Source: a virus
Virus record (IMG/VR): IMGVR_UViG_3300042465_003746
Span: 1 to 64,000 of that record
Length of the DNA stretch: 64,000 nucleotides
Strand: one strand, 5' to 3'
In this document: one piece after another, positions 1-11,480 of the stretch
Numbering within the stretch: the stretch's first letter is position 1
Layout of the letters: every line of letters starts with the position of its first letter
Notes under the pieces: model-generated
The model's database searches: none
Seen by the model: the letters and a program-made list of their open reading frames with translations, nothing else
Told to the model about the DNA's origin: nothing
Program-made: the position numbers and the translations under genes

Positions 1-3000
1 TTCCTTAGTAAGCAAGTTAATAAATTTAAGAATCCAGAATTACTACAAGAATATTTAGAAGAAGTTGCAGGTGATAATTTAATAAGCAATTTGCCATTCT
101 TAAAGGATTTATCCAATGATGACTCTGATGTTAATGGTTTATTAGAAATTTCTATACTAGATGGTTTATCTAGAAAAGGTAAGAAGCGTTCAGTAAGTTA
201 CGGGGATATGTCAGATATTGAGATGACTGCTGTAGAATTAGCTATGTTTTACAACTCTGCTAATAAAAAAGGAGTTAGTCGTTTTAAATTACCTATTCCT
301 TCAAACTCAACTACTTTACCTTTTATAACTTCTCGTAGTTACGCTAAAGAGGAAGTAATAACTAGATTAGTAGATACCGCAAGAGCAGAATTCTCTAGAA
401 TTATTAAGTTAAAACATAGTGCAGGTACAGACTTAGCCCTTATTCCTAATTATATGGAAAGAGGTAGTAAGTATCAAATACTATCTTTCTTAAATAATAC
501 CCTAGATACTTCTAAAGGATTTGATGAGGCTTTGGTAACAGCAGAAGTTACTAAATTTTTAGAAGGAAAATTCTTAGCCGATCATATTGAAGCTTACAAA
601 ACTAAGGGTATTATCAAAAGCGTAAACCCTACTACAGGTGAGATAACATTTGCAGATAAATTAATTTCTGCTAAAGTAGCAAATAAAACAGAATTCTTTT
701 TGGACTATTTATATAATACTTATTATATGAATACGCAGTTGACTACTCTATTAGGAGGAGACCCTGCTTTCTATAAGAACACAGTAAACTACCAAAAAAG
801 ATATAAGCAAATAATGAGTCCTGGTACTTATACCGATACTACAAATATTGCTGATAACTACGGAGCCATTATTTTAAATGACGAAGAATTCCCTACTGCA
901 AAAGAAGTAGTAGATAATATTGTATCAATACTAGAAAGTTCTAATTTGCCTAAAGAAGAAATAGATGACTTAGTAACTATGTGGAAAACTAAGAAACACA
1001 ATCTTACTGACGGTGCTACTATCATTGGTGTTAAAAGAAAAAAACAACAGTTAGAAGGACTCCAAAGATGGACACCTGAGCATGAAGAAGCTTATCAAAG
1101 AGAGATAAAAGCACTTCCTGCGTTACCTAATGCATTAAATTTATTCTCTCCAGAAAAACCTTTTATCTTTGCTCAAAGAATTGTAGACGGCACAGTTGTA
1201 CCTTTCCAAGGTAAAAACTCTGAGGTAACTCTTACTAGAGCACTTGCCTATAAGACTGACTCAGATGGTAAAATCTTATTCCCTAAATTAGTAGCTCTTT
1301 ACGATGTACTAATGAATGGTATAGAAGACGAAGACGGAAACATTACTGAAGTAGATGCCGCTATGTTTGAATCTGCAGTAAAAGTAGGAGCAATAGGTAA
1401 TACTACTACCCCTAAAGGAAAAGTACGTTTTAGCGAGTTTTTAGAGCAGAAAGACGGTACTTATCAATTATCTCCAGGAGCACATGTATTATCTCTTAAA
1501 ACAGAGGAATGGAGATTACAGCAAGAAACTCCTGAGCACTTTATTGATGCAGAAGGTAACTTTGGTACTCAGCTAAGAAATCTTGCTATTGGGGATATGG
1601 ATCTTGAGGGCACTTATGATATCAATGGTACAAATATGAAAGGTTACGAAGTAGCTAAAATGTACCAAGAACTAATTGCAGAAGATTTAAAAGCTTCTTT
1701 TGAAGAGTTAAAAAGTGTATTTGAAAATGAAGATGGTACTATTAACTATGAACGATTAGCAGAAATGCTAAGAAAAGAAGTTATTAATAGAGATATGGGG
1801 CAAGAATATTTAGATGCCCTAGAACCTATTAAAAAAATTATAGAAGGTAAAGAAACTATTACTACTACTCTTCCTTTATATCATCCTCTTATTTCTTATA
1901 AGATGATGGCAGTACTAAATTCATTCTTTAAGAACCGAGTTACTAAACAAAAGATTGCAGGTGGAGCAGTAATTAACGCTTCTTCTTATGGTGTAGATAA
2001 AACCCTTAAATTTGAAGTAGATAAAAAGCTTGGTAAAATTACTTTAGAGGCAATGATGCCTTGGACTTCTAGAAAGTACTTCCCATTAGATGCTAACGGA
2101 GAAGTAGATATCGAAGCTATTAAATTATCAGCACCTGAATTACTTAGCATTATTGGCTATAGAATTCCTACGGAAGATAAATACTCTGCCTTTAATATTA
2201 GAATAGTAGGATTTACTCCTCCAAATATGGGAGGTATGATGATGCTACCTAAAGAAGTAACTACTTTGGCAGGTCTGGATTTTGATATTGATAAGATGTA
2301 CATGATGGCTAGATCTTTCTATGTAAATAAACAAGGAAAACCTAAGTACATTAAGTATATTGACAAAGTAGAGACTGAGGAACAAGCACAAGAACTTGCT
2401 AAAAATATCTTTAGTAATTTCCAAGACTATAAAAGATTTGTAAATAAAAATGTAGATGCCAAAAACATAAATAAAATGTTAGAGGGTCGTACAGAATTAT
2501 TAGATAAATTAGCTCTTGACCCTGTTATAATGGCAGATAAAGAGGATATCAGTAAATCTATTAAAGAATTAAAAGAAGAGAAAAAAGCTGCTATTAAACT
2601 TCACGGTCCAGATAGCAAATTTGTGCAATATATTCAAGATAGTTTAGACGAATTATACGTAGCAATTTCTGATGCTATTCCATTTAATGAAACAGAAACT
2701 CCTTTAACAGCAAAGCACGAAGAAGCTATTAATTTTATTGCTAAGAAATTACTATCAGAAGATTTTAATGCTGCAGAATTTAACTCTTCTAAGGCTAGAG
2801 ACAATAAGAAATTAGAAATACTTAAAGGTATTTTTGAAAATAAAAACACTGCTTTATCAATACTTAACCCTGGAAACTTTGATTCTCTTAAAGAAGGAGC
2901 TGCTAGAATTAGATTATTACAAGCAGGTAAAAAAGTAGCAGGGTTATCTAAGGCAGAATTAGTTAAAAATGCAGAAGAACTAGATAACGAAGAGGACTTT

Positions 3001-5850
3001 AATATTAACTATCCATCTACACAGTTAGAGTTATTTAGAAGAAACATGACAGGTAACCAATTGATTGGTATTTTTGCTAATCATAATACTCATCATGCTA
3101 AAGCTCAATATACAGATTTACAATTAAAAGAGCCGATTTTCTTTAATGAAGAACAGTTCTATTTATTAAATCAAACTACTAATAATAAAGGAGTTCGTAT
3201 TTCTAAATCTTTGGCATCTGATTTAGCAGCTGTAGTAGATACTGCAAGTGATCCATTAGCATCTTTCCTAAACATGAATACTTTTACTGCTAATACTCAA
3301 GCTTTGCTAGAGAGATTAGGAGTAGATAATAGAACAATTTTTGCTTTCTTAAATCAACCTATTATATTAGAATTAACTCAAACATATTTTAATGATAAAG
3401 GAGGTCTAGCTGATGCTAAACAATTTAGAGAGATACAAGCTAGTTGGAAGAAAAAACTTGAGGATAAATTAGAAAACGCAGATATCAAAGTAGAGGACTT
3501 ACTTAAAGATCTTAACTTTTCTACTGCAGAATTAGAATCTTTTATTTATCCTAGTGGAACATTAGAATATTACCAAACCCAGTATCGAGCAATTCATGCT
3601 TTCCAAAAATATTATAATATAGCACTAGAATTAGGAGAAGGTATTCAAGCAGCTAAAGCTGATACAACGGGAGTAGGACCTTCTATGGCCACTAACTACA
3701 CTACTATTAACAAACAAACTAAATTAAGTAGAAAAGTTAAAGCAGGTAGCAATACTATTATTGGATTAGAAGAAGTATATAAAACAGGTCCTCGTCAAAT
3801 TATGATGGCGGCTTTTAATAAATACGGATTAGAGGGCGCAGTAACTGTACTTAACAAAATATTCCCTTCAATAGGATCTATAAGTGAAGAGGGGGTATTA
3901 ACTTATTCTTCTCTAGGAGACCTTAAGAATTGGTTTAGTGATCAAAAAGGAGATTTCTTTAGCTTAACAGAGAAAGAAGCTCAAATGGTAGATATCAATT
4001 ATATTAACTTCATTGCAAGTGGATTCCCATTCTTTGAATATAGTCAAGGTAAAGATATTCTAACTAATTTACCTGACTCTTTAGTAAAGTTTAAGAAAAC
4101 TTTACCTAAGAATTCTTCATTTATTCCTTTATTAGATTCTCTATATGTTGTAGAAGGAGATAGTAATTCTTCTGTTAGGAGAATAGAATTCTATACTACA
4201 GGCAAAAAGCCTTTAGACATACAAAGAGCTAAAGAAGCTTGGGAAAGAATGTTAACTGATAAAGACCCAGCTGTTAAAGAAATGGCTCTTAAGTTAGTTC
4301 AATATACTTTTTTCTCTGCAGGTTACGGATTTGGTCCTTTTACTTTCTCTAATATGGTTCCTGTTAAATTTTGGACAGATAGTTACCAAATAGCTAACAA
4401 CATAGTAGATACTAAAGGAAGACCTTTTAATGATTTCCTTGCTGATGCATTAAGTTCAGATTTTTTAAAGAATGATGAAGCTAGAACTAATAGATTCAAG
4501 AAACAGTTTATGCAGAATCATGCTGATAAAGAACAATTTACTAAAACAGTTAAAGTAGATGTGAATAAAATATTTACTCCTAAAGCAGGAAGAACTGCGG
4601 AGCAAATGGATTACGACACTACAATGGCTGCTAGAAATGATAAAAGTGGTATTATAGTAACTAGAAAAGGAAACTTAATAGTTAACAAAAAGAAGAATCC
4701 TCAATTACTTCCTTTTGGAGAAAAAGCGGCTCCTATGAAATACATAAAAGTATTTAATAAAACAGGGGGAGGTCATATGTTGTTTGAATATAAAGAAACT
4801 GCATTTGACCAAAAAAACAATGCTTTATACGAAGGACAATCAAATATAGACACCGTTACTTACTTTCCTATTCCTGTTTTAGGTGCATCTAATTTTGTAT
4901 TAGAATTTAATTTCTACGATGATATTAATGAAACTTCTGTGCCTAAAAAGAAAAAGATTATAGCTAAAGGCCCTATAGCACAGATGGAAGCAGAGATGGA
5001 TAAATTAACAGATGACGCTATAATGATGGGGGTAGAACAAGATGCTATGCAAGATATAAGTTCTTTAAAACCTACTGTTGCTCCAACTACTCAATCATCT
5101 ACTAGTTTGCCTAGAGCAGAAACTAAGATTAATATTTATGCAAGTACAGGAGAAAATGCTGAGTTAAGTAATTTTGCTAATAGACCTTTTCTTACAACAG
5201 GTAATTTAAAGTTTAATACTGTAGAAGGAGCTTTTCAATATTGGAAAGTACTTTTTACAGACGGTGCTTATACAATAGAAGAAGCAGACGCTTTATTAGA
5301 AAAATTACAAAATGCAACAGGAGCAGAAGCTAAAAAAATAGGACGTACTATTAAAAATTTAAACACTGCTAAATGGGATGCATATTCTAGTAGAGGTATG
5401 AAAAAACTTTTATTAGAGTCTTTTGAACAAAATCCAGATGCACTTGCTAAATTACTTGCAACAGGTAATGCTACTCTTACACATACCCAAGATAAAGGCA
5501 AATGGGGTACTGAGTTTCCTAAACTACTTATGGAAGTAAGAGATGAACTTAAAACTACTCAACCTGCTGCTGCTAATAAACCATTAAGTCTAGCGCAGAT
5601 GGCAGATACAGGACTTACAGCAAAGCAAGAAGGAACTACTCCTGCAACACCAAAACCACTTACACTTTCCCAAATGGCTGATGTAAATGCAAAAGAACCT
5701 ATGGGATTATTTGAAAAATTAGAATCAAATGATTTTGAAGAATATACTAAAGCAGGTGGTACAGAGTTAAGTAAAAAAGATTTCTTATCTTTAAGCCGTC
5801 AAGAGCAAGCTAATGCAATATATCAAGCTAAAAATTGTAAAAACGGTTAA
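1..5850 (+). CDS. Giant virion DNA-dependent RNA polymerase (crAss-like, phi14:2 gp66-type) with C-terminal NADAR domain; 5' end lies outside the window
   Basis: Frame open from base 1; catalytic motif GLDFDIDK (DFDIDK at nt 2278-2295) preceded by YRIPTED; more than 1900 aa; NADAR motifs LSNF, TVEGAFQYWK, WG...LMEVR at ~5125-5553. Confidence 0.92.
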   Translation, partial: FLSKQVNKFKNPELLQEYLEEVAGDNLISNLPFLKDLSNDDSDVNGLLEISILDGLSRKGKKRSVSYGDMSDIEMTAVELAMFYNSANKKGVSRFKLPIPSNSTTLPFITSRSYAKEEVITRLVDTARAEFSRIIKLKHSAGTDLALIPNYMERGSKYQILSFLNNTLDTSKGFDEALVTAEVTKFLEGKFLADHIEAYKTKGIIKSVNPTTGEITFADKLISAKVANKTEFFLDYLYNTYYMNTQLTTLLGGDPAFYKNTVNYQKRYKQIMSPGTYTDTTNIADNYGAIILNDEEFPTAKEVVDNIVSILESSNLPKEEIDDLVTMWKTKKHNLTDGATIIGVKRKKQQLEGLQRWTPEHEEAYQREIKALPALPNALNLFSPEKPFIFAQRIVDGTVVPFQGKNSEVTLTRALAYKTDSDGKILFPKLVALYDVLMNGIEDEDGNITEVDAAMFESAVKVGAIGNTTTPKGKVRFSEFLEQKDGTYQLSPGAHVLSLKTEEWRLQQETPEHFIDAEGNFGTQLRNLAIGDMDLEGTYDINGTNMKGYEVAKMYQELIAEDLKASFEELKSVFENEDGTINYERLAEMLRKEVINRDMGQEYLDALEPIKKIIEGKETITTTLPLYHPLISYKMMAVLNSFFKNRVTKQKIAGGAVINASSYGVDKTLKFEVDKKLGKITLEAMMPWTSRKYFPLDANGEVDIEAIKLSAPELLSIIGYRIPTEDKYSAFNIRIVGFTPPNMGGMMMLPKEVTTLAGLDFDIDKMYMMARSFYVNKQGKPKYIKYIDKVETEEQAQELAKNIFSNFQDYKRFVNKNVDAKNINKMLEGRTELLDKLALDPVIMADKEDISKSIKELKEEKKAAIKLHGPDSKFVQYIQDSLDELYVAISDAIPFNETETPLTAKHEEAINFIAKKLLSEDFNAAEFNSSKARDNKKLEILKGIFENKNTALSILNPGNFDSLKEGAARIRLLQAGKKVAGLSKAELVKNAEELDNEEDFNINYPSTQLELFRRNMTGNQLIGIFANHNTHHAKAQYTDLQLKEPIFFNEEQFYLLNQTTNNKGVRISKSLASDLAAVVDTASDPLASFLNMNTFTANTQALLERLGVDNRTIFAFLNQPIILELTQTYFNDKGGLADAKQFREIQASWKKKLEDKLENADIKVEDLLKDLNFSTAELESFIYPSGTLEYYQTQYRAIHAFQKYYNIALELGEGIQAAKADTTGVGPSMATNYTTINKQTKLSRKVKAGSNTIIGLEEVYKTGPRQIMMAAFNKYGLEGAVTVLNKIFPSIGSISEEGVLTYSSLGDLKNWFSDQKGDFFSLTEKEAQMVDINYINFIASGFPFFEYSQGKDILTNLPDSLVKFKKTLPKNSSFIPLLDSLYVVEGDSNSSVRRIEFYTTGKKPLDIQRAKEAWERMLTDKDPAVKEMALKLVQYTFFSAGYGFGPFTFSNMVPVKFWTDSYQIANNIVDTKGRPFNDFLADALSSDFLKNDEARTNRFKKQFMQNHADKEQFTKTVKVDVNKIFTPKAGRTAEQMDYDTTMAARNDKSGIIVTRKGNLIVNKKKNPQLLPFGEKAAPMKYIKVFNKTGGGHMLFEYKETAFDQKNNALYEGQSNIDTVTYFPIPVLGASNFVLEFNFYDDINETSVPKKKKIIAKGPIAQMEAEMDKLTDDAIMMGVEQDAMQDISSLKPTVAPTTQSSTSLPRAETKINIYASTGENAELSNFANRPFLTTGNLKFNTVEGAFQYWKVLFTDGAYTIEEADALLEKLQNATGAEAKKIGRTIKNLNTAKWDAYSSRGMKKLLLESFEQNPDALAKLLATGNATLTHTQDKGKWGTEFPKLLMEVRDELKTTQPAAANKPLSLAQMADTGLTAKQEGTTPATPKPLTLSQMADVNAKEPMGLFEKLESNDFEEYTKAGGTELSKKDFLSLSRQEQANAIYQAKNCKNG

Positions 5851-5852
5851 TT

Positions 5853-8800
5853 ATGTCCCATTGTATAAATACTTCCCATCCTGAATACCAAGAGTTACTA
5901 CTCCAAAGTAACTTAATGCCTGCTATTTTAAAAGCTAAAATAGCTACTTGGATGGATAATAATACTGCAGATAGATTTCCTACTATAGTAGAATTACTTA
6001 ATCTTGGAGAAGTAAATCAAACTTTAAGAGTGGTAGATGCTCTTTCTAAGATTCAAAGAGGATTATTTACTCAAGATAAATTGCAAGGTTGGTTAAATGA
6101 CTTGCAAAAACAAGGGGTTTCAAATGACCAATTAGAGATTTTTAAAGAGGTTGCTAAACCAGGAATGTCTAAAGATGAGATAGCTACTTCTATTGCTGCT
6201 ACTTATAGTTATACTATTGAAATTAATACTGCTACAGAGACAGCAAGTGGTGCTAATAGAATAGCAGGATACAATAATGATAATATTGATGTAAATAGTT
6301 TATATATTAAAGAAAGTGACTTTAGAGATTTTATTGTTAAAGATAAAAACGGAATGTTGTTAAGTCCTATAGCATATAAAACAAGACAAGAAGCACAAGA
6401 AGCCATAAATAATATTGGAAAAAAACCTTCTCAATATTACTCAAATCTAACAGTTCCAGGTGGTACTAATTATACAGAGAATGAAATAGCTACTCCTGAT
6501 ATTACGCCTAGTATAAAAGGACATGCTCAGTTTGCTACAGATAAAGGTATTGGGTGGTTTAGAAGTGATGAAACAAGTCCTTATTCTAATACATTAGGAT
6601 TTGATGTAGACGCAATGACAGAAGAAGAGTATGATAATTATTTAAAAAATTATCCTAAAACTCGTAGAATACTAGAAGTACAATCTGATTTATTTCAGAA
6701 AGGTAGAGATAAAGAAGATTTAGTAGGATTACCTGAAAAAGACTCTAATAAATTAGTATTAGAATCTGAAAAATTAATGAGAGATTATGAGATTGGAAAA
6801 ATTACTATTGAAGAGTATAAACAAAAAACACAAGAACTAGTTGACGCTGCTCCAAAAAAAGATGTTTCTAAAAACCAATTCCTACAACTCCTAAACAAAG
6901 ATAATAATTGGGTAACGTTCTTTGTTAAATCTATTATACAAGATTCTGCTAAAAAAGGTTATGAGAAAGTATTATTTCCTTCTGGTGATACAGCTAGTAA
7001 AATAGAAGGACATACAACATTAGAAGAGTTTAAGAAACAGAAAGAAGCTAGAATTAAAGATCTTGAAAATAAATTAAATGATAAATTTGTAGCTGTTAGA
7101 GAAGATGATAATTTTGGTGCTTTAGATCAAGAGTTTAATACTGTTCAAGAAGCTCAAAAGTTTGCTAATGATAATACTACAAGTACAGAAATTTGGACAG
7201 TTAGACCAATTAAAGTAGATAAAGAAAGTATTAATAATGAAATAAACCAACTTAAACAAGAACTTGCAAATGTAGAAGGTCCTCAAGGATTTGGTGCTCT
7301 TAAACCTATCTATAACTTCTATGAAAACACTGTAAAAAACATTCTTAATAAACAATACGGTAAAGATAATGTAAAAGTTATTACAGATGAATACGGTAAT
7401 ACTTGGAATGAGTTAGATATTAAAGAACAAAGAGACCAGGGAACTATTTTATATAATCTTCCTAAAGAAACCCCTTTAGCAGCTAAAGCTAGAATACTTA
7501 AAAAAGTTAATGCTAAGAAAGATGGATATGTTTCTCCTTTTAATTATGGAGAATTATTAACATTAGTAGGAAATTATAATAAGACACAGCCTCAGACATC
7601 TTTAAAAATGTTTAAAGCCCCTTCAGGAGATTATTACATTAAAATTGTGGACGAAGCTATGCAGCTTAGTTCCACTACTAATGAAAAACCCCTAAAAGAA
7701 TTAGAGGATAAATTACGTACTTGGGCAGAAACTAATAGTATCTCTATAGAAGCTATAGAAGATCTAATGAAAAGGTTTGAAGGAAGGTACCACGAAGGAG
7801 CACTCGGTGTAGCAGATTTTGCTAATTTATTAATAGGTATAGCAGATGGAAGAAGTCTAGACACTTTGCCTGAAGAAATTGCCCACTTTGCTGTTAGAAT
7901 ATTAAAAGATAAAGGAGATATTTCTGTACTTAGAGCCTTAGATGCAGTGCATTTAACTCCTGAGTATGCAGGAGTACTAGAAGAATACAAAGATGTTTAT
8001 ACAGAAGAATCTCAATTTAGAGAAGAAACTTTAGGTAAAATACTAGCCAAAGAAATAGTAGGTCAGTATACTAAGCCAGAGATTATCAGACCAGAGACCA
8101 GAGGATTTTTTGCTTACCTAAATGCTATAAAAGAGAAGTTCCTAAAATGGGCCAAAACTACTTTTAGTCGGGGAGCCAAAGCAAGAGTAGAATTAGAGAA
8201 TTTTATTAATCCTTTGGCAAAATCTATATTAGCAAATGAAGTACTAGGAACTTTAAATAGAGAACAACAAGATGTTCTATATCAATTAGAGTCAGAGGAA
8301 GACGAAGAAGTTTACGAAGAAGAATTTGAAGAATTAGATGTTGACCCTATTATAGCACAGAAGCAAAAGTTTTTATTAGAAGCTAAGGCGCAGTTAATAG
8401 AAAGAATGGCTCTTCTTGAAAGAGGTATTAAGAGTCAGACTACAATTGATCGATTAAAAGTAGAGATAGATTCCCTAGAATATAAAATAACCAAAGGAGA
8501 ATTAGATGCTGCTATTGCTAGTTTTGTAAAATTAGCACAAGGAGAGTTAAGTCAGATTTATAATTTACTAGAAAAAGGAATAGATAATAAGAAAATAAAT
8601 CCAGGGGTAATAGTAATGTCCAAGGGATTTATGGATATGTATTCTAATTTATTTACTACCTTCTTAGCAGACATCTACGAATGGGGTATTCCTAAAGAAG
8701 AGAGAGGCGAGTTAGTAAATGCTATACAATCTGCAGGAACTCTTATATCTGCTATGAATCCAATGCTCCATACCTTAGCAAGAAGGGAAGGAATCAAAAC

Positions 8801-11480
8801 TTTAATAGAAGCTAACACTGATCATAACGGTAATAAAATAGACCCAGATTTTGATGAAGCAAAAGCTTTTGATGATACAGAGGAAGATATGAGTGCTTAT
8901 AGATTACAAGCAGGTATCTATAAAAATGCTAGTTCTTTATTAATTAAAGCAGCTACTAAAATAATATTTGATTCCTTAAGTAGAATTAAGAGATTTACTA
9001 CTCAAACAGCTAATGAAGTACTAAGAGCTCAAGAACTAATGTTAAAATCTGGAGGTAAAATATTAGATTTAGTAGAACATGATTCTAAAGGAAAGCCTAC
9101 TCATTATTTTATTAGAGAATATAATTGGAGTAGGTACTACGAAGCACTTGCTACAGTTAAACAAGAAATAGCAGATGCATTAGGAGAAGAAAATTATGAT
9201 AGTATTTCTAAAGTATATTTAGAACCTGCAGATAAAAAACTTTACAATTCAATGTGGGAAGCTTTTTATATAAATCATACTAAAGAAATAACTACTACTG
9301 AAGAAATTCAAGGAACTAATGTAATAGTACATTCAACTGTTCCTAATGATTCTTATAAAAATCCTAAGTATGCTGAAATGCAAAGTAACCCTGCAACTAA
9401 AGCTTACTACGACCTACTTATTCAAAAGAAGCAAGAGGCAATAATGAAACTTCCTATTCAATATAGGAAAGAAAGAAATGTTTATATGCTTCCAGGAGTT
9501 ATTAAAAGTACTCTTGATAGGCTTACTAACCCTAACGAAAGTATATTAACTAGAGTAGGTAAACTTAGTAGAGATTCAATGTTCTTAGACCCAGATGATA
9601 CTCAATTTGGTCAAGTAAGTGTACTTAATAATAAAATGGTTCCTATTTTCTTTACAGGAACCCTACAAGATACCAATGATTTATCTTTTGACTTAGGAAG
9701 AACCGTAACTCTTTTTTCAGAAATGGCAGAAAATTACCAAGAAATGAATAAAATCTCTGGTGATTTAGGAGCTATACAATTATCTATGGCGGAAAGAAAC
9801 TATACTAAAGCAGGAGTTAGAAAAACAGGTAAAGAAGGTGCTAATGAATTTAAAGCGCTAGAAGTGTTGATGGATACTCACGTATTCGGTATAGAAAGAG
9901 CAGCTAATCTATCAGGAAAAATTAAATCTAATGCAGTAACAGAAAAATTAGGTCTAGCAGGTAAGCAGTTTTCTTGGACAAAGGCCAATCAATTATTTAC
10001 TACTTTTATTAGAGATAATAACCTTGCTTTAAATATTACTACAGCTCTTTCAGGATTCTTAAAAGGATCAGGTGATTCTATTATAGAAGACCAAGTAGGT
10101 TTATATACTACTAATGAAAGTAAAAATTGGGCTAGAGTAGAATTTATGTCTAATATTGCTCAAGTATCTGCTGAAGTAGGGAAAGCTAAACAGACTAACA
10201 AAATGCATCTTATTTTACAAGAAGCACAAGTAGCAAATATTGAAAATGCCCTACAAGATACTACTAGAAATAGAGCAACTAGAAAATTAACTAATAAAGA
10301 TTTGTTATATATTCCGTTTGCTACGGGAGATTATGGTATTAAAGGTAGAATAACTTTAGCTATCTATGATAACTATAGATTATACAATAATCAGTTTATG
10401 ACTAGAGCTAAATTCTATGAAAAAACTGCTAAAGAAGCTGGAGTAGCTAATGATAGTGCCCATCAAAAAACAGTAGGTAAAACTTGGGAAGCTCTTAGAG
10501 AAAAGAGTTTATATAATGCATATGAGGTAGTAAATGGTAATCTAGAAATTAAAGACGAATTTAAACAACATGTTACCGAGGGAGTTCTTTCTTCTGCTCA
10601 CGGTAAAATAGATCATGTTACTCATATGGTAGATGGTACTTTAAGTGAGACGGATAAAGGGGCCCTATCTAGGACTATTTTAGGAGATTATCTATTAATG
10701 CACAGAGGATGGTTTATCGGAATGATAGATACTAGATTTAGAAAAGAAGGAAAACAATTTATTACTGAAGAAGATGAAATAGGAAGTTATAGAGCTTCTG
10801 CAGATTTTATGTGGAACGGTATAGGAAAAGCAATAATAAAAGACAGAGCAGGATTAGCGGGAGCTCATGCTAATTGGAAAAATCTAAGTCCTGCTAAGAA
10901 AAGAGGAGTTTACAGAACAGCTCTAGATTTATTATATCTTAACATAGTTTCTATATTAGCGGCTATGGCTAATATTGCTGCCGATGACGATGATGATAAA
11001 GATTGGACTACTCAATATACAGCTTATCAAATGAATAGATTACTATTAGAACAAGGTGCCGCTTGGTCACCTGCAGAATTAGCGCAGATGATTGATGAGC
11101 CAGTAGTAGGTGCTAGAATGATTAAAGATTTATTGGATATTTCTGAATCTTGGAATTTTAGTCAAAAATATGAAGCGGGAATGTATAAAGATGATTCTCA
11201 TGCAGATAAATGGTGGTTCCGCAAGTTACCCGTAAAAAACTTATACGAGATGCAATACCCTGAGTTAAAGAATAACTTTATTAAACAGATGGTAGATTCT
11301 AAAGTATATCAACTAATGTCTCCTGAACAAAAAATAAACGTAGGCACTTTAGGAACTCTTAAGAATTGGGTATTGCCTAGAGGATTAGCTAAGGATTATT
11401 CTTCTAAAGGAGATGACCCAGTACCACAAATAATAGAAGAATTACAAGAAGATCAGACTATAGATAACGGCTTTAACTAA
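5853..11480 (+). CDS. Large virion cargo/ejection polyprotein
   Basis: 1875 aa directly after the RNAP, as in crAss-like phages; degenerate zincin-like EEIAH; hydrophobic helix plus acidic run near the C-terminus. Confidence 0.7.
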   Translation: MSHCINTSHPEYQELLLQSNLMPAILKAKIATWMDNNTADRFPTIVELLNLGEVNQTLRVVDALSKIQRGLFTQDKLQGWLNDLQKQGVSNDQLEIFKEVAKPGMSKDEIATSIAATYSYTIEINTATETASGANRIAGYNNDNIDVNSLYIKESDFRDFIVKDKNGMLLSPIAYKTRQEAQEAINNIGKKPSQYYSNLTVPGGTNYTENEIATPDITPSIKGHAQFATDKGIGWFRSDETSPYSNTLGFDVDAMTEEEYDNYLKNYPKTRRILEVQSDLFQKGRDKEDLVGLPEKDSNKLVLESEKLMRDYEIGKITIEEYKQKTQELVDAAPKKDVSKNQFLQLLNKDNNWVTFFVKSIIQDSAKKGYEKVLFPSGDTASKIEGHTTLEEFKKQKEARIKDLENKLNDKFVAVREDDNFGALDQEFNTVQEAQKFANDNTTSTEIWTVRPIKVDKESINNEINQLKQELANVEGPQGFGALKPIYNFYENTVKNILNKQYGKDNVKVITDEYGNTWNELDIKEQRDQGTILYNLPKETPLAAKARILKKVNAKKDGYVSPFNYGELLTLVGNYNKTQPQTSLKMFKAPSGDYYIKIVDEAMQLSSTTNEKPLKELEDKLRTWAETNSISIEAIEDLMKRFEGRYHEGALGVADFANLLIGIADGRSLDTLPEEIAHFAVRILKDKGDISVLRALDAVHLTPEYAGVLEEYKDVYTEESQFREETLGKILAKEIVGQYTKPEIIRPETRGFFAYLNAIKEKFLKWAKTTFSRGAKARVELENFINPLAKSILANEVLGTLNREQQDVLYQLESEEDEEVYEEEFEELDVDPIIAQKQKFLLEAKAQLIERMALLERGIKSQTTIDRLKVEIDSLEYKITKGELDAAIASFVKLAQGELSQIYNLLEKGIDNKKINPGVIVMSKGFMDMYSNLFTTFLADIYEWGIPKEERGELVNAIQSAGTLISAMNPMLHTLARREGIKTLIEANTDHNGNKIDPDFDEAKAFDDTEEDMSAYRLQAGIYKNASSLLIKAATKIIFDSLSRIKRFTTQTANEVLRAQELMLKSGGKILDLVEHDSKGKPTHYFIREYNWSRYYEALATVKQEIADALGEENYDSISKVYLEPADKKLYNSMWEAFYINHTKEITTTEEIQGTNVIVHSTVPNDSYKNPKYAEMQSNPATKAYYDLLIQKKQEAIMKLPIQYRKERNVYMLPGVIKSTLDRLTNPNESILTRVGKLSRDSMFLDPDDTQFGQVSVLNNKMVPIFFTGTLQDTNDLSFDLGRTVTLFSEMAENYQEMNKISGDLGAIQLSMAERNYTKAGVRKTGKEGANEFKALEVLMDTHVFGIERAANLSGKIKSNAVTEKLGLAGKQFSWTKANQLFTTFIRDNNLALNITTALSGFLKGSGDSIIEDQVGLYTTNESKNWARVEFMSNIAQVSAEVGKAKQTNKMHLILQEAQVANIENALQDTTRNRATRKLTNKDLLYIPFATGDYGIKGRITLAIYDNYRLYNNQFMTRAKFYEKTAKEAGVANDSAHQKTVGKTWEALREKSLYNAYEVVNGNLEIKDEFKQHVTEGVLSSAHGKIDHVTHMVDGTLSETDKGALSRTILGDYLLMHRGWFIGMIDTRFRKEGKQFITEEDEIGSYRASADFMWNGIGKAIIKDRAGLAGAHANWKNLSPAKKRGVYRTALDLLYLNIVSILAAMANIAADDDDDKDWTTQYTAYQMNRLLLEQGAAWSPAELAQMIDEPVVGARMIKDLLDISESWNFSQKYEAGMYKDDSHADKWWFRKLPVKNLYEMQYPELKNNFIKQMVDSKVYQLMSPEQKINVGTLGTLKNWVLPRGLAKDYSSKGDDPVPQIIEELQEDQTIDNGFN

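Follow-up and report, generated by a model that had tools for sequence, protein, structure and literature searches.

The window analysed here comprises positions 1 to 64,000 of the IMG/VR virus record IMGVR_UViG_3300042465_003746, from a lake crAss-like phage, and its numbering is used for the coordinates of the polymerase open reading frame (ORF). Our analysis confirmed that positions 5086-5562 encode an intact NADAR domain fused in frame to a homologue of the crAss-type RNA polymerase. The domain is an exchangeable cassette, near-identical phages holding in its place another NADAR allele, a DUF4326-like domain or an empty slot. The NADAR rides on the one protein that has to be available to a crAss-like phage for its first genes to be read. 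With a confidence somewhat better than even, we read the polymerase-borne NADAR as an injected antidote, which would remove the ribosyl-type base adducts of a host defence before phage gene expression. Such an enzyme would explain how crAss-like phages meet defences acting on their incoming DNA.

Identity, Fold and Catalytic Residues of the NADAR Domain

The folded domain runs from KINIY to LMEVRDEL (5125..5550, plus strand) and was recognised by Pfam, a profile, a structure model and alignments. Pfam family NADAR (PF08719) matches residues 1718-1839 of the 1949-aa part encoded in the window with an E-value of 1.3e-13 and 51.9 bits, for a gathering cut-off of 35.1 bits. The score is 53.8 bits for the 316-aa end and 50.1 bits for the whole protein. 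An earlier note on this DNA, made from its letters, had recognised a NADAR/YbiA-like domain following a low-complexity linker and had proposed a NADAR/DUF1768 profile search as a check. The match to PF08719 bears this identification out, and the motifs on which it relied, ELSNF (5161-5175), TVEGAFQYWK, DKGKWG and LMEVR (5527-5550), are present once each.

A profile built from 18 relatives matches E. coli YbiA (2b3w, 1.2e-12) and a Phytophthora NADAR (8bau, 1.4e-9); with the same profile, the DarT1-linked NADAR of G. lovleyi (8bat) gives no sequence match at E <= 1. The AlphaFold2 model of the domain, with a mean predicted local distance difference test (pLDDT) score of 85.1, has an ordered part of ~145 residues made of strands and five long helices. 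Compared by Foldseek to the PDB, this model retrieves 8bau, 2b3w and 8bat as the top three structures, with a probability of 1.00 each and an E-value of 6e-3 for 8bat, all other matches having E > 0.5.

The key residues reported for NADAR proteins are a Glu and a Lys seven positions apart, two phosphate-binding basic residues and a residue of the last strand (PMC11543638, PMC11825919). All of these have counterparts on the plus strand of the window. The catalytic Glu (5224-5226) aligns with E36 of T4 gp30.3 and E43 of the Phytophthora NADAR (Pn), and the catalytic Lys (5245-5247) with K43 of T4 gp30.3 and Pn K50. The AKKIGR motif provides a phosphate-binding Lys at the Pn K75 position (5332-5334) and a phosphate-binding Arg at the Pn R79 position (5344-5346), and the last-strand His (5482-5484) falls in the His column of T4 gp30.3. 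An Asp (5491-5493) and the Trp of DKGKWG (5503-5505) also belong to the domain. Across 240 distinct domains of the clade, the Glu is kept in 239, the Lys in 239, the His in 240, the Asp in 231 and the Trp in 233, while the basic pair is present as K or R in 237 at the K75 position and as R or K in 198 at the R79 position.

The last-strand residue is described as differing among families, the YbiA family having Glu, DarT1-linked NADARs Asp and phage NADARs His (PMC11125620). In our alignments this column holds Glu in 17 of 18 host NADARs and His in T4 gp30.3. The Pfam family Phage_30_3 (PF08010), which is based on gp30.3, scores 19.7 and 23.7 bits, under its cut-off of 36. Because of this sub-cut-off score and of the 25% identity to gp30.3, we class the domain as a His-type NADAR and not as a member of PF08010. 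It also lacks the marks of a DarG1, namely a last-strand Asp and an adjacent DarT1 gene: the residue is His, and searches of the polyprotein and of the giant proteins next to it detected no ADP-ribosyltransferase (ART) family. In PHROGs, the domain matches unnamed families only (phrog_1017 and phrog_652). In the favoured reading, this NADAR would hydrolyse base-linked ADP-ribose.

A Polymerase Polyprotein Carries the Domain

Frame 1 of the plus strand is open throughout positions 1-5850 of the window. The contig has 87,413 bases, the first 149 of which are repeated at its end with 1 mismatch; we therefore consider it a circular assembly of ~87,264 bases. Translation across the circular junction revealed an ORF of 3239 codons, starting with an ATG at contig base 83395 and ending at a stop codon by window position 5850. 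Its 3' two thirds (1949 codons and the stop) thus occupy 1..5850 on the plus strand, and an identical 3239-aa protein, hereafter P0002, is found in the protein database. The fusion described in the earlier note holds, with the correction that the ORF is not whole in the window.

P0002 is a polyprotein with a putative zincin-like module, a virion RNA polymerase and a NADAR. Its modules follow one another in the order HEAFH region, polymerase core, linker, NADAR, two KPL(S/T)L(A/S)QMAD repeats and a tail of ~50 residues ending in ..AKNCKNG. The single HEAFH lies at residue 683, and the putative zincin-like module matched no Pfam family. Residues ~595-812, around the HEAFH, resemble the product of a separate 'RNA-polymerase subunit' gene of crAss001. 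The polymerase core is matched by phi14:2 gp66 (6vr4) in phmmer (E 6e-21) through three significant aligned stretches, and the alignment includes DFDID (2278..2292, plus strand), which is the catalytic motif in virion RNA polymerases of the crAss type. This match and the single ORF substantiate the fusion to a crAss-type RNA polymerase, as proposed from the letters. With an RNA polymerase and a NADAR in one uninterrupted ORF, P0002 combines at least two unrelated activities, as polyvalent proteins do.

A low-complexity linker (4933..5085, plus strand) joins the polymerase core to the cassette. The stretch of about 60 residues ahead of the NADAR is rich in K, Q, T and S and has low confidence in the AlphaFold2 model, seen as low pLDDT at the model start. 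The cassette itself (5086..5562, plus strand) begins at a first set of TTQ codons and runs to a second set.

An Exchangeable Slot Bounded by a Short Joint

P0003 is ~95% identical to P0002 in the core and 87% in the tail, and 65-68% in the NADAR. P0004 and P0005 have NADARs 82% identical to that of P0002, with cores < 30% identical. On the nucleotide level, the identity of the window to an IMG/VR relative, L005, is 0.75-0.98 through position 5099, drops to 0.3-0.6 over 5100-5579 and returns to 0.87-1.0 from 5580. There, between flanks of about 90% identity, an unrelated domain of about 135 aa replaces the NADAR in L005. It has no Pfam or PHROG match, and its DUF4326 label, with a language-model score of 0.87, is a lead only. 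In P0256-P0259, the cores of which are 82-89% identical, the slot is empty and 75-81 residues separate the core end from the tail; P0257 reads ..TTQPSTSVKPLSLADMAD.. at the site where the window has TTQSSTS, the cassette and TTQPAAANKPLSLAQMAD. Other lineages hold 156-447 residues of other content at the slot, including DUF7831 and weak ART-PolyVal-like segments. A Pfam scan of eleven filled- and empty-slot relatives returned only sub-threshold ART-PolyVal matches, in P0272 (19.1 bits) and P0285 (22.5 bits). This natural allele series of NADAR, other NADAR, DUF4326-like domain and empty slot is suited to direct tests.

The cassette of L005 is flanked by two copies of a near-identical 24-nt stretch. 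Copies of this exact stretch, here called the joint, were found at 33 sites across IMG/VR contigs, each of them in the frame that gives TQ(P/S)STSVK, and the flanks of these sites are mutually unrelated, with a median ungapped identity of 0.33. The window has two degraded copies on its plus strand: the upstream one (5089..5112), which reads TQSSTS.., keeps 19 of the 24 bases, the first 18 exact, and the downstream one (5557..5580), which reads TQPAAANK, keeps 17. At none of the 33 sites does the exact joint lie beside a clear NADAR, a single weak hit (3.6e-4) being found. For this reason, the association of the joint with NADARs rests on the two degraded copies of the window and on the protein-level motif, which 35 of 153 distinct flank pairs have on one side or the other, at most 30 residues away from a NADAR, compared with 6 of 2251 random windows from the same proteins.

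Two observations on slot contents can be added. P0141, a 218-aa fragment, is identical to the window protein through the linker up to ..GENAELSNFA and then continues as another NADAR allele (63% overall), a switch point that suggests a recombination breakpoint within the conserved start of the domain. The slot cassettes of P0268 and P0287 carry ..EHAYQ.WK.. / ..ESAYQSLK.. and ..STH.., recalling the Glu, Lys and His pattern of NADARs. They were missed by the NADAR profile (E 1e-3) and by Pfam (E 0.05), and from their sequence pattern may be divergent NADAR-like domains.

Distribution and Partner Domains

An exhaustive search of 1.84 billion representatives returned 1056 NADAR hits, 214 of them at E <= 1e-30; among the best 150 of the 1056, 81 are at least 1000 aa long and 65 at least 2000 aa. 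Metagenomes yielded 392 proteins, 1071-3411 aa long, with a NADAR of this clade (E <= 1e-3). Partner domains and positions were counted in the 120 of these giants that were listed, the partners by hand from the table, and eight of the giants were re-scanned for domains. Similarity to the polymerase core of P0002 was detected by BLASTP in 67 of the 120. The motif DFDxD is present in 54, with the NADAR located after it in 51 and before it in 3. The partners found in the same chains are an SF1 (superfamily 1) helicase (66), cpYpsA (27), an AlkB-type dioxygenase (5), DUF7831 (5) and ART-PolyVal (2), among which the helicase and AlkB point to nucleic-acid substrates.

The survey can also be read from the polymerase side, as the presence/absence comparison across related polymerases proposed in the earlier note. 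From this side the NADAR is rare: it was found in 5 among the best 120 of 313 core homologues (E <= 1e-3), in three of them at the C-terminal slot and in two close to the N-terminus. The curated phage collection has it in three crAss-like genomes. Of these, cr126_1 has its NADAR at the N-terminal end of the 2402-aa polymerase homologue QOR59539.1 (MT774391.1), labelled 'DUF1768 domain-containing protein' in GenBank; the NADAR of cr131_1 lies mid-way in a 1401-aa protein and that of cr130_1 near the end of a 5801-aa protein.

Host Survey and Likely Target

Crassvirales are described as infecting Bacteroidetes (PMC10136315). The host phylum was reached here through contigs of metagenome-assembled genomes (MAGs) that carry the NADAR clade and are labelled Bacteroidota or Flavobacteriales, on the assumption that the MAG is tied to the host of this phage. 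The sample comprised 401 genomes of the phylum of the Flavobacteriales-labelled MAG. DarT-family genes are present in 34 of them. The neighbours were inspected for 22 of the 39 match rows and proved to be a Macro-domain gene at 21 loci and an ADP-ribosylglycohydrolase (ARH) gene at 1. DarT with Macro or ARH is the layout of the thymidine-type DarTG2 systems, the modification of which is reported not to be reversed by the NADARs tested (PMC11125620), and a DarT1 target becomes doubtful as a consequence. The weak DarT hits of 5 additional genomes have no adjoining NADAR either. The DarT model used, PF14487, may miss DarT1; it matched 0 of 14 control genomes. Among the loci seen, L045 (genome G215) has a divergent DarT-family gene between a UvrD-type helicase gene and a 524-aa ARH gene.

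NADARs occur in 34 genomes of the 401 sampled, and roughly two in three of these NADARs are high-scoring YbiA-like genes. Out of eight lower-scoring host NADAR loci examined, four sit directly after a PRTase-CE gene. At these loci (L070, L071, L073 and L074), the PRTase-CE gene is followed by a Glu-type NADAR, the two overlapping or lying a few bases apart. The likely target therefore moves, with this host survey, from DarT1 to phosphoribosyltransferase (PRTase)-NADAR systems, and this shift offers a testable handle on the chemistry of DS-32-type defence. As for further gene neighbours, the pair of L074 adjoins an AAA_15/AAA_21 ATPase gene, the host NADAR of L075 adjoins a Kinase-PolyVal gene, and that of L068 has an NrtR-type Nudix regulator on one side and a zeta-toxin-like kinase on the other.

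Proposed Mechanism and Alternative Explanations

The identity of the domain, its fold and catalytic residues, its fusion, its exchange as a cassette and its genome context are what we observed, and from them we infer a virion protein that is packaged and ejected, acts on modified bases and benefits the phage. P0002 would be a late polyvalent virion protein of 3239 aa, in which a zincin-like module, a crAss-type DNA-dependent RNA polymerase, a linker, an exchangeable slot and a Cys-ended tail succeed one another. The slot would here be occupied by a His-type (phage-type) NADAR, probably an N-glycohydrolase removing ADP-ribosyl or related ribosyl groups from nucleic-acid bases. Made late, the protein would be packed into the capsid like its phi14:2 homologue gp66, which is reported to be packed in virions and to transcribe early genes (preprint 10.1101/2020.03.07.982082), and would leave the capsid together with the DNA or ahead of it. 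Still tethered or released by cleavage, the NADAR would then strip the base adducts set by a ribosylating defence toxin of the host on the incoming DNA, the very template that the injected polymerase must read before phage gene expression. Candidate toxins are an ADP-ribosyltransferase specific for guanine or cytidine, resembling DarT1 or pierisin, and the PRTase of PRTase-NADAR (DS-32-like) systems. Recombination at the short in-frame DNA joint would refill the slot, so that related phages would carry different ready-made enzymes, and the fast turnover of cassettes among near-identical phages is as expected for a part engaged in an arms race.

Several points weigh against this reading. DarT and NADAR are paired at none of the 22 loci examined in the sampled phylum. 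PADLOC models returned only the candidate system PDC-M42C (2.5e-9), and no DarG model at E <= 0.01. The presence of the NADAR in only 5 of the 120 closest polymerase homologues listed makes it a dispensable part, and in the curated phage collection the fusion occurs in no cultured phage, only in the uncultured cr126_1, cr130_1 and cr131_1. NADARs not linked to DarT1, a phage one included, are reported to hydrolyse ADP-ribosylated guanine in vitro without rescuing E. coli from DarT1 (PMC11125620), and Iyer et al. 2022 (PMC9503650) argue for soluble derivatives of ADP-ribose as the substrates of most phage NADARs. Finally, the polyprotein could be processed in such a way that the NADAR is never packed, cleavage of fused forms having been suggested by the authors of the phi14:2 study (preprint 10.1101/2020.03.07.982082), or the NADAR could act late in the producing cell.

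Within the favoured mechanism, the target is split between DarT1-like ARTs and PRTase-type systems, each of them a tentative proposal when taken singly. The earlier note had proposed an anti-DarT (or nucleotide-damage) enzyme delivered on the polymerase; a NADAR with the catalytic residues of the anti-DarTG1 protein AdfN was indeed found, whereas the DarT1 target has become doubtful. As an anti-DarT1 enzyme, the domain would remove ADP-ribose from guanine in the phage DNA. NADARs are reported to reverse the guanine ADP-ribosylation by DarT1 (PMC11543638), T4 AdfN, which has the Glu, Lys and His found here, to counter DarTG1 (PMC11825919), and phi14:2 gp66 to transcribe single-stranded DNA, the form modified by DarT enzymes. 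This role is nonetheless rather unlikely, given the exclusive association of the examined DarT loci with Macro or ARH, the last-strand His where DarT1-linked NADARs have Asp, and the failure of the DarT1-linked 8bat to match by sequence. Alternatively, the domain may mimic the antidote of a PRTase-NADAR (DS-32-like) defence of Bacteroidota, removing a phosphoribosyl-type base adduct or the product of a PRTase effector. The four host loci with a NADAR downstream of or overlapping PRTase-CE speak for it, and so do the report of DS-32 (PRTase and NADAR) as a validated anti-phage system (preprint 10.1101/2025.01.08.631726), the listing of PRTase-CE as a type III-A retron neighbour (PMC13712802) and the precedent of orphan antitoxin-like phage enzymes (PMC11825919). 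However, the host PRTase-linked NADARs are Glu-type and the phage clade is His-type, and the comparison covers eight loci, where 34 genomes have a NADAR match, from a phylum whose link to the host of this phage is assumed; on its own, this target is a possibility of low probability. A bolder version, which we regard as speculative, would make the end of the crAss-type polymerase a plug-in port, where the in-frame joint TQ(P/S)STSVK swaps pre-packed counter-defence enzymes among unrelated phages and where the NADAR targets PRTase-NADAR (DS-32-like) defence, not DarT1, in Bacteroidota. If so, the antidote injected by the phage would copy that of the host itself, and it would travel tethered to the very enzyme that must read the damaged template.

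Readings that place the substrate or the beneficiary elsewhere appear less probable. The domain might degrade soluble molecules derived from NAD or ADP-ribose, immune signals or by-products, and not DNA adducts, the view preferred by Iyer et al. 2022 (PMC9503650) for the Macro and NADAR domains of phages. The frequent neighbour cpYpsA (27 of the 120 giants listed) is a SLOG nucleotide-binding domain, and the occupant of the L005 slot resembles, as a lead only, DUF4326, which the same authors tie to ADP-ribose breakdown (PMC9503650). The helicase and AlkB partners point instead to nucleic acids, and the NADARs assayed in the cited papers act on base-linked ADP-ribose or riboflavin intermediates, so that a soluble substrate seems unlikely to us. 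A service to the phage itself, either undoing marks of a phage ADP-ribosyltransferase, cleaning progeny DNA late or being cut off before packaging, is improbable as well. It would agree with the position of the polymerase gene in the late block, with the 2 of 120 listed relatives that join this NADAR clade and ART-PolyVal in one protein, and with the weak, sub-cut-off ART-PolyVal-like cassettes in the same slot of P0272 and P0285. Against it, the giant proteins of this phage contain no ART domain at E <= 0.01, and the cassette lies between the polymerase core and a tail that is conserved with or without it, which fits co-transport. A housekeeping YbiA-like N-glycosidase for damaged riboflavin intermediates would account for E. 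coli YbiA being the best PDB sequence match, but hardly for a His in place of the Glu of the YbiA family, nor for a domain fused to a virion polymerase and swapped between near-identical phages; we consider it very improbable.

Relation to Known Systems

Phage NADAR counter-defence and giant injected polyvalent proteins are known; the novelty lies in the carrier, in the slot and in a probable change of target. The closest functional precedent is T4 AdfN (gp30.3), described as a DNA de-ADP-ribosylase and as a counter-defence against DarTG1 (PMC11825919). Both proteins are phage-encoded and share the NADAR fold, the Glu and Lys seven apart and the aligned last-strand His. However, they are 25% identical, and the T4 protein is a stand-alone gene of 152 aa, whereas the present domain is a cassette in a late protein of 3239 aa. 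DarG1, the NADAR antitoxin of DarT1 (PMC11543638), has in common with it the superfamily and presumably the chemistry, and differs in its last-strand Asp, its two-gene operon with DarT1 and, for the G. lovleyi protein (8bat), a match by fold only. The DS-32 system, as described in the DefensePredictor preprint (10.1101/2025.01.08.631726), also has a NADAR as presumed antidote partner, and its two-gene layout is the one seen at half of the eight NADAR loci examined in the sampled phylum. It is nevertheless a cellular defence system and not a phage protein, and the host versions are Glu-type.

On the carrier side, phi14:2 gp66 (6VR4), with its neighbour gp65, has a homologous core with DFDID and lies in a late structural block. 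The N-terminal part of P0002, with its HEAFH and its likeness to the crAss001 'RNA-polymerase subunit', fits the fused forms described in the preprint (10.1101/2020.03.07.982082). Unlike P0002, gp66 has 2180 residues; the identity is low, the alignment stops at residue 1230 of the query P0001 and leaves its C-terminal part, NADAR segment included, unmatched, and no enzymatic add-on is named in the accessible parts of that preprint. The polyvalent proteins of Iyer et al. 2017 (PMC5512222), which include an N4-like fusion of virion RNA polymerase and ART, similarly gather unrelated activities in one presumably injected giant, with a zincin-like module, putative in P0002, and a polymerase as hubs. 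The present carrier is instead a crAss-type polymerase of the two-barrel kind, with its add-on placed in a slot bounded by the joint. The words 'NADAR' and 'crAss' have 0 occurrences each in PMC5512222, and 'crass' has 0 in PMC9503650. A further counterpart, cr126_1 QOR59539.1, is also a crAss-like polymerase homologue and has a NADAR 54.5% identical to that of P0002, but its NADAR is N-terminal in a 2402-aa protein, its core is < 30% identical, and the phage belongs to the Steigviridae of the human gut. Viral NADARs are called typically stand-alone (PMC9503650), as are NADARs in general by Schuller et al. (PMC11543638). Our literature search retrieved no paper tying NADAR, DUF1768 or YbiA to crAss-like phages, although supplementary annotation tables could still list the domain.

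Genome Context and Other Features

PHROG and Pfam scans revealed a crAss-like layout, with a replication module on the minus strand (11.5-37 kb) and, on the plus strand, terminase, portal and major head protein, then CrAss_Ring_1, crAss_MUZ and crAss_CARG1, the last with a glucosaminidase domain. After the crAss_CARG1 gene come two unassigned giants, a small ferritin-like gene, the polymerase polyprotein and an 1875-aa protein. The polymerase gene thus lies at the end of the block of late structural and cargo genes, on the same strand as CrAss_Ring_1, crAss_MUZ and crAss_CARG1. The next gene in the block (5853..11480, plus strand), encoding the 1875-aa protein, occupies the position of the large partner proteins found beside crAss-type polymerases, and sequence searches of this ORF against Pfam, PHROG, PADLOC and the PDB gave no match. 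The ferritin/rubrerythrin-like gene of 157 aa (contig 82910-83383, L006:19111-19584) is located outside the window, after the cargo genes and immediately upstream of the polymerase ORF.

Downstream of the cassette, the two KPL(S/T)L(A/S)QMAD copies (5578..5682, plus strand) are present in empty-slot relatives too. The duplicates are located at 5578-5607 and 5653-5682, between the slot and the tail, and the empty-slot relative P0258 has SPLDLLGQMAD twice in their place. This duplicate could be a processing or docking site. The conserved C-terminal tail (GLFEKLE ... AIYQAKNCKNG, 5704..5847, plus strand), which is kept with and without the cassette, has a near-terminal Cys at 5836-5838. A Cys within the last 4 residues is found in 106 of the 120 polymerase homologues listed and in 106 of the 120 NADAR-bearing giants listed. 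Cys makes up only 0.1% of these polymerase homologues and NADAR-bearing giants, and P0002 has three (residues 3, 254 and 3236). The protein of cr126_1 ends in ..KIC, and gp50 of crAss001 has ..KIC ten residues from its end.

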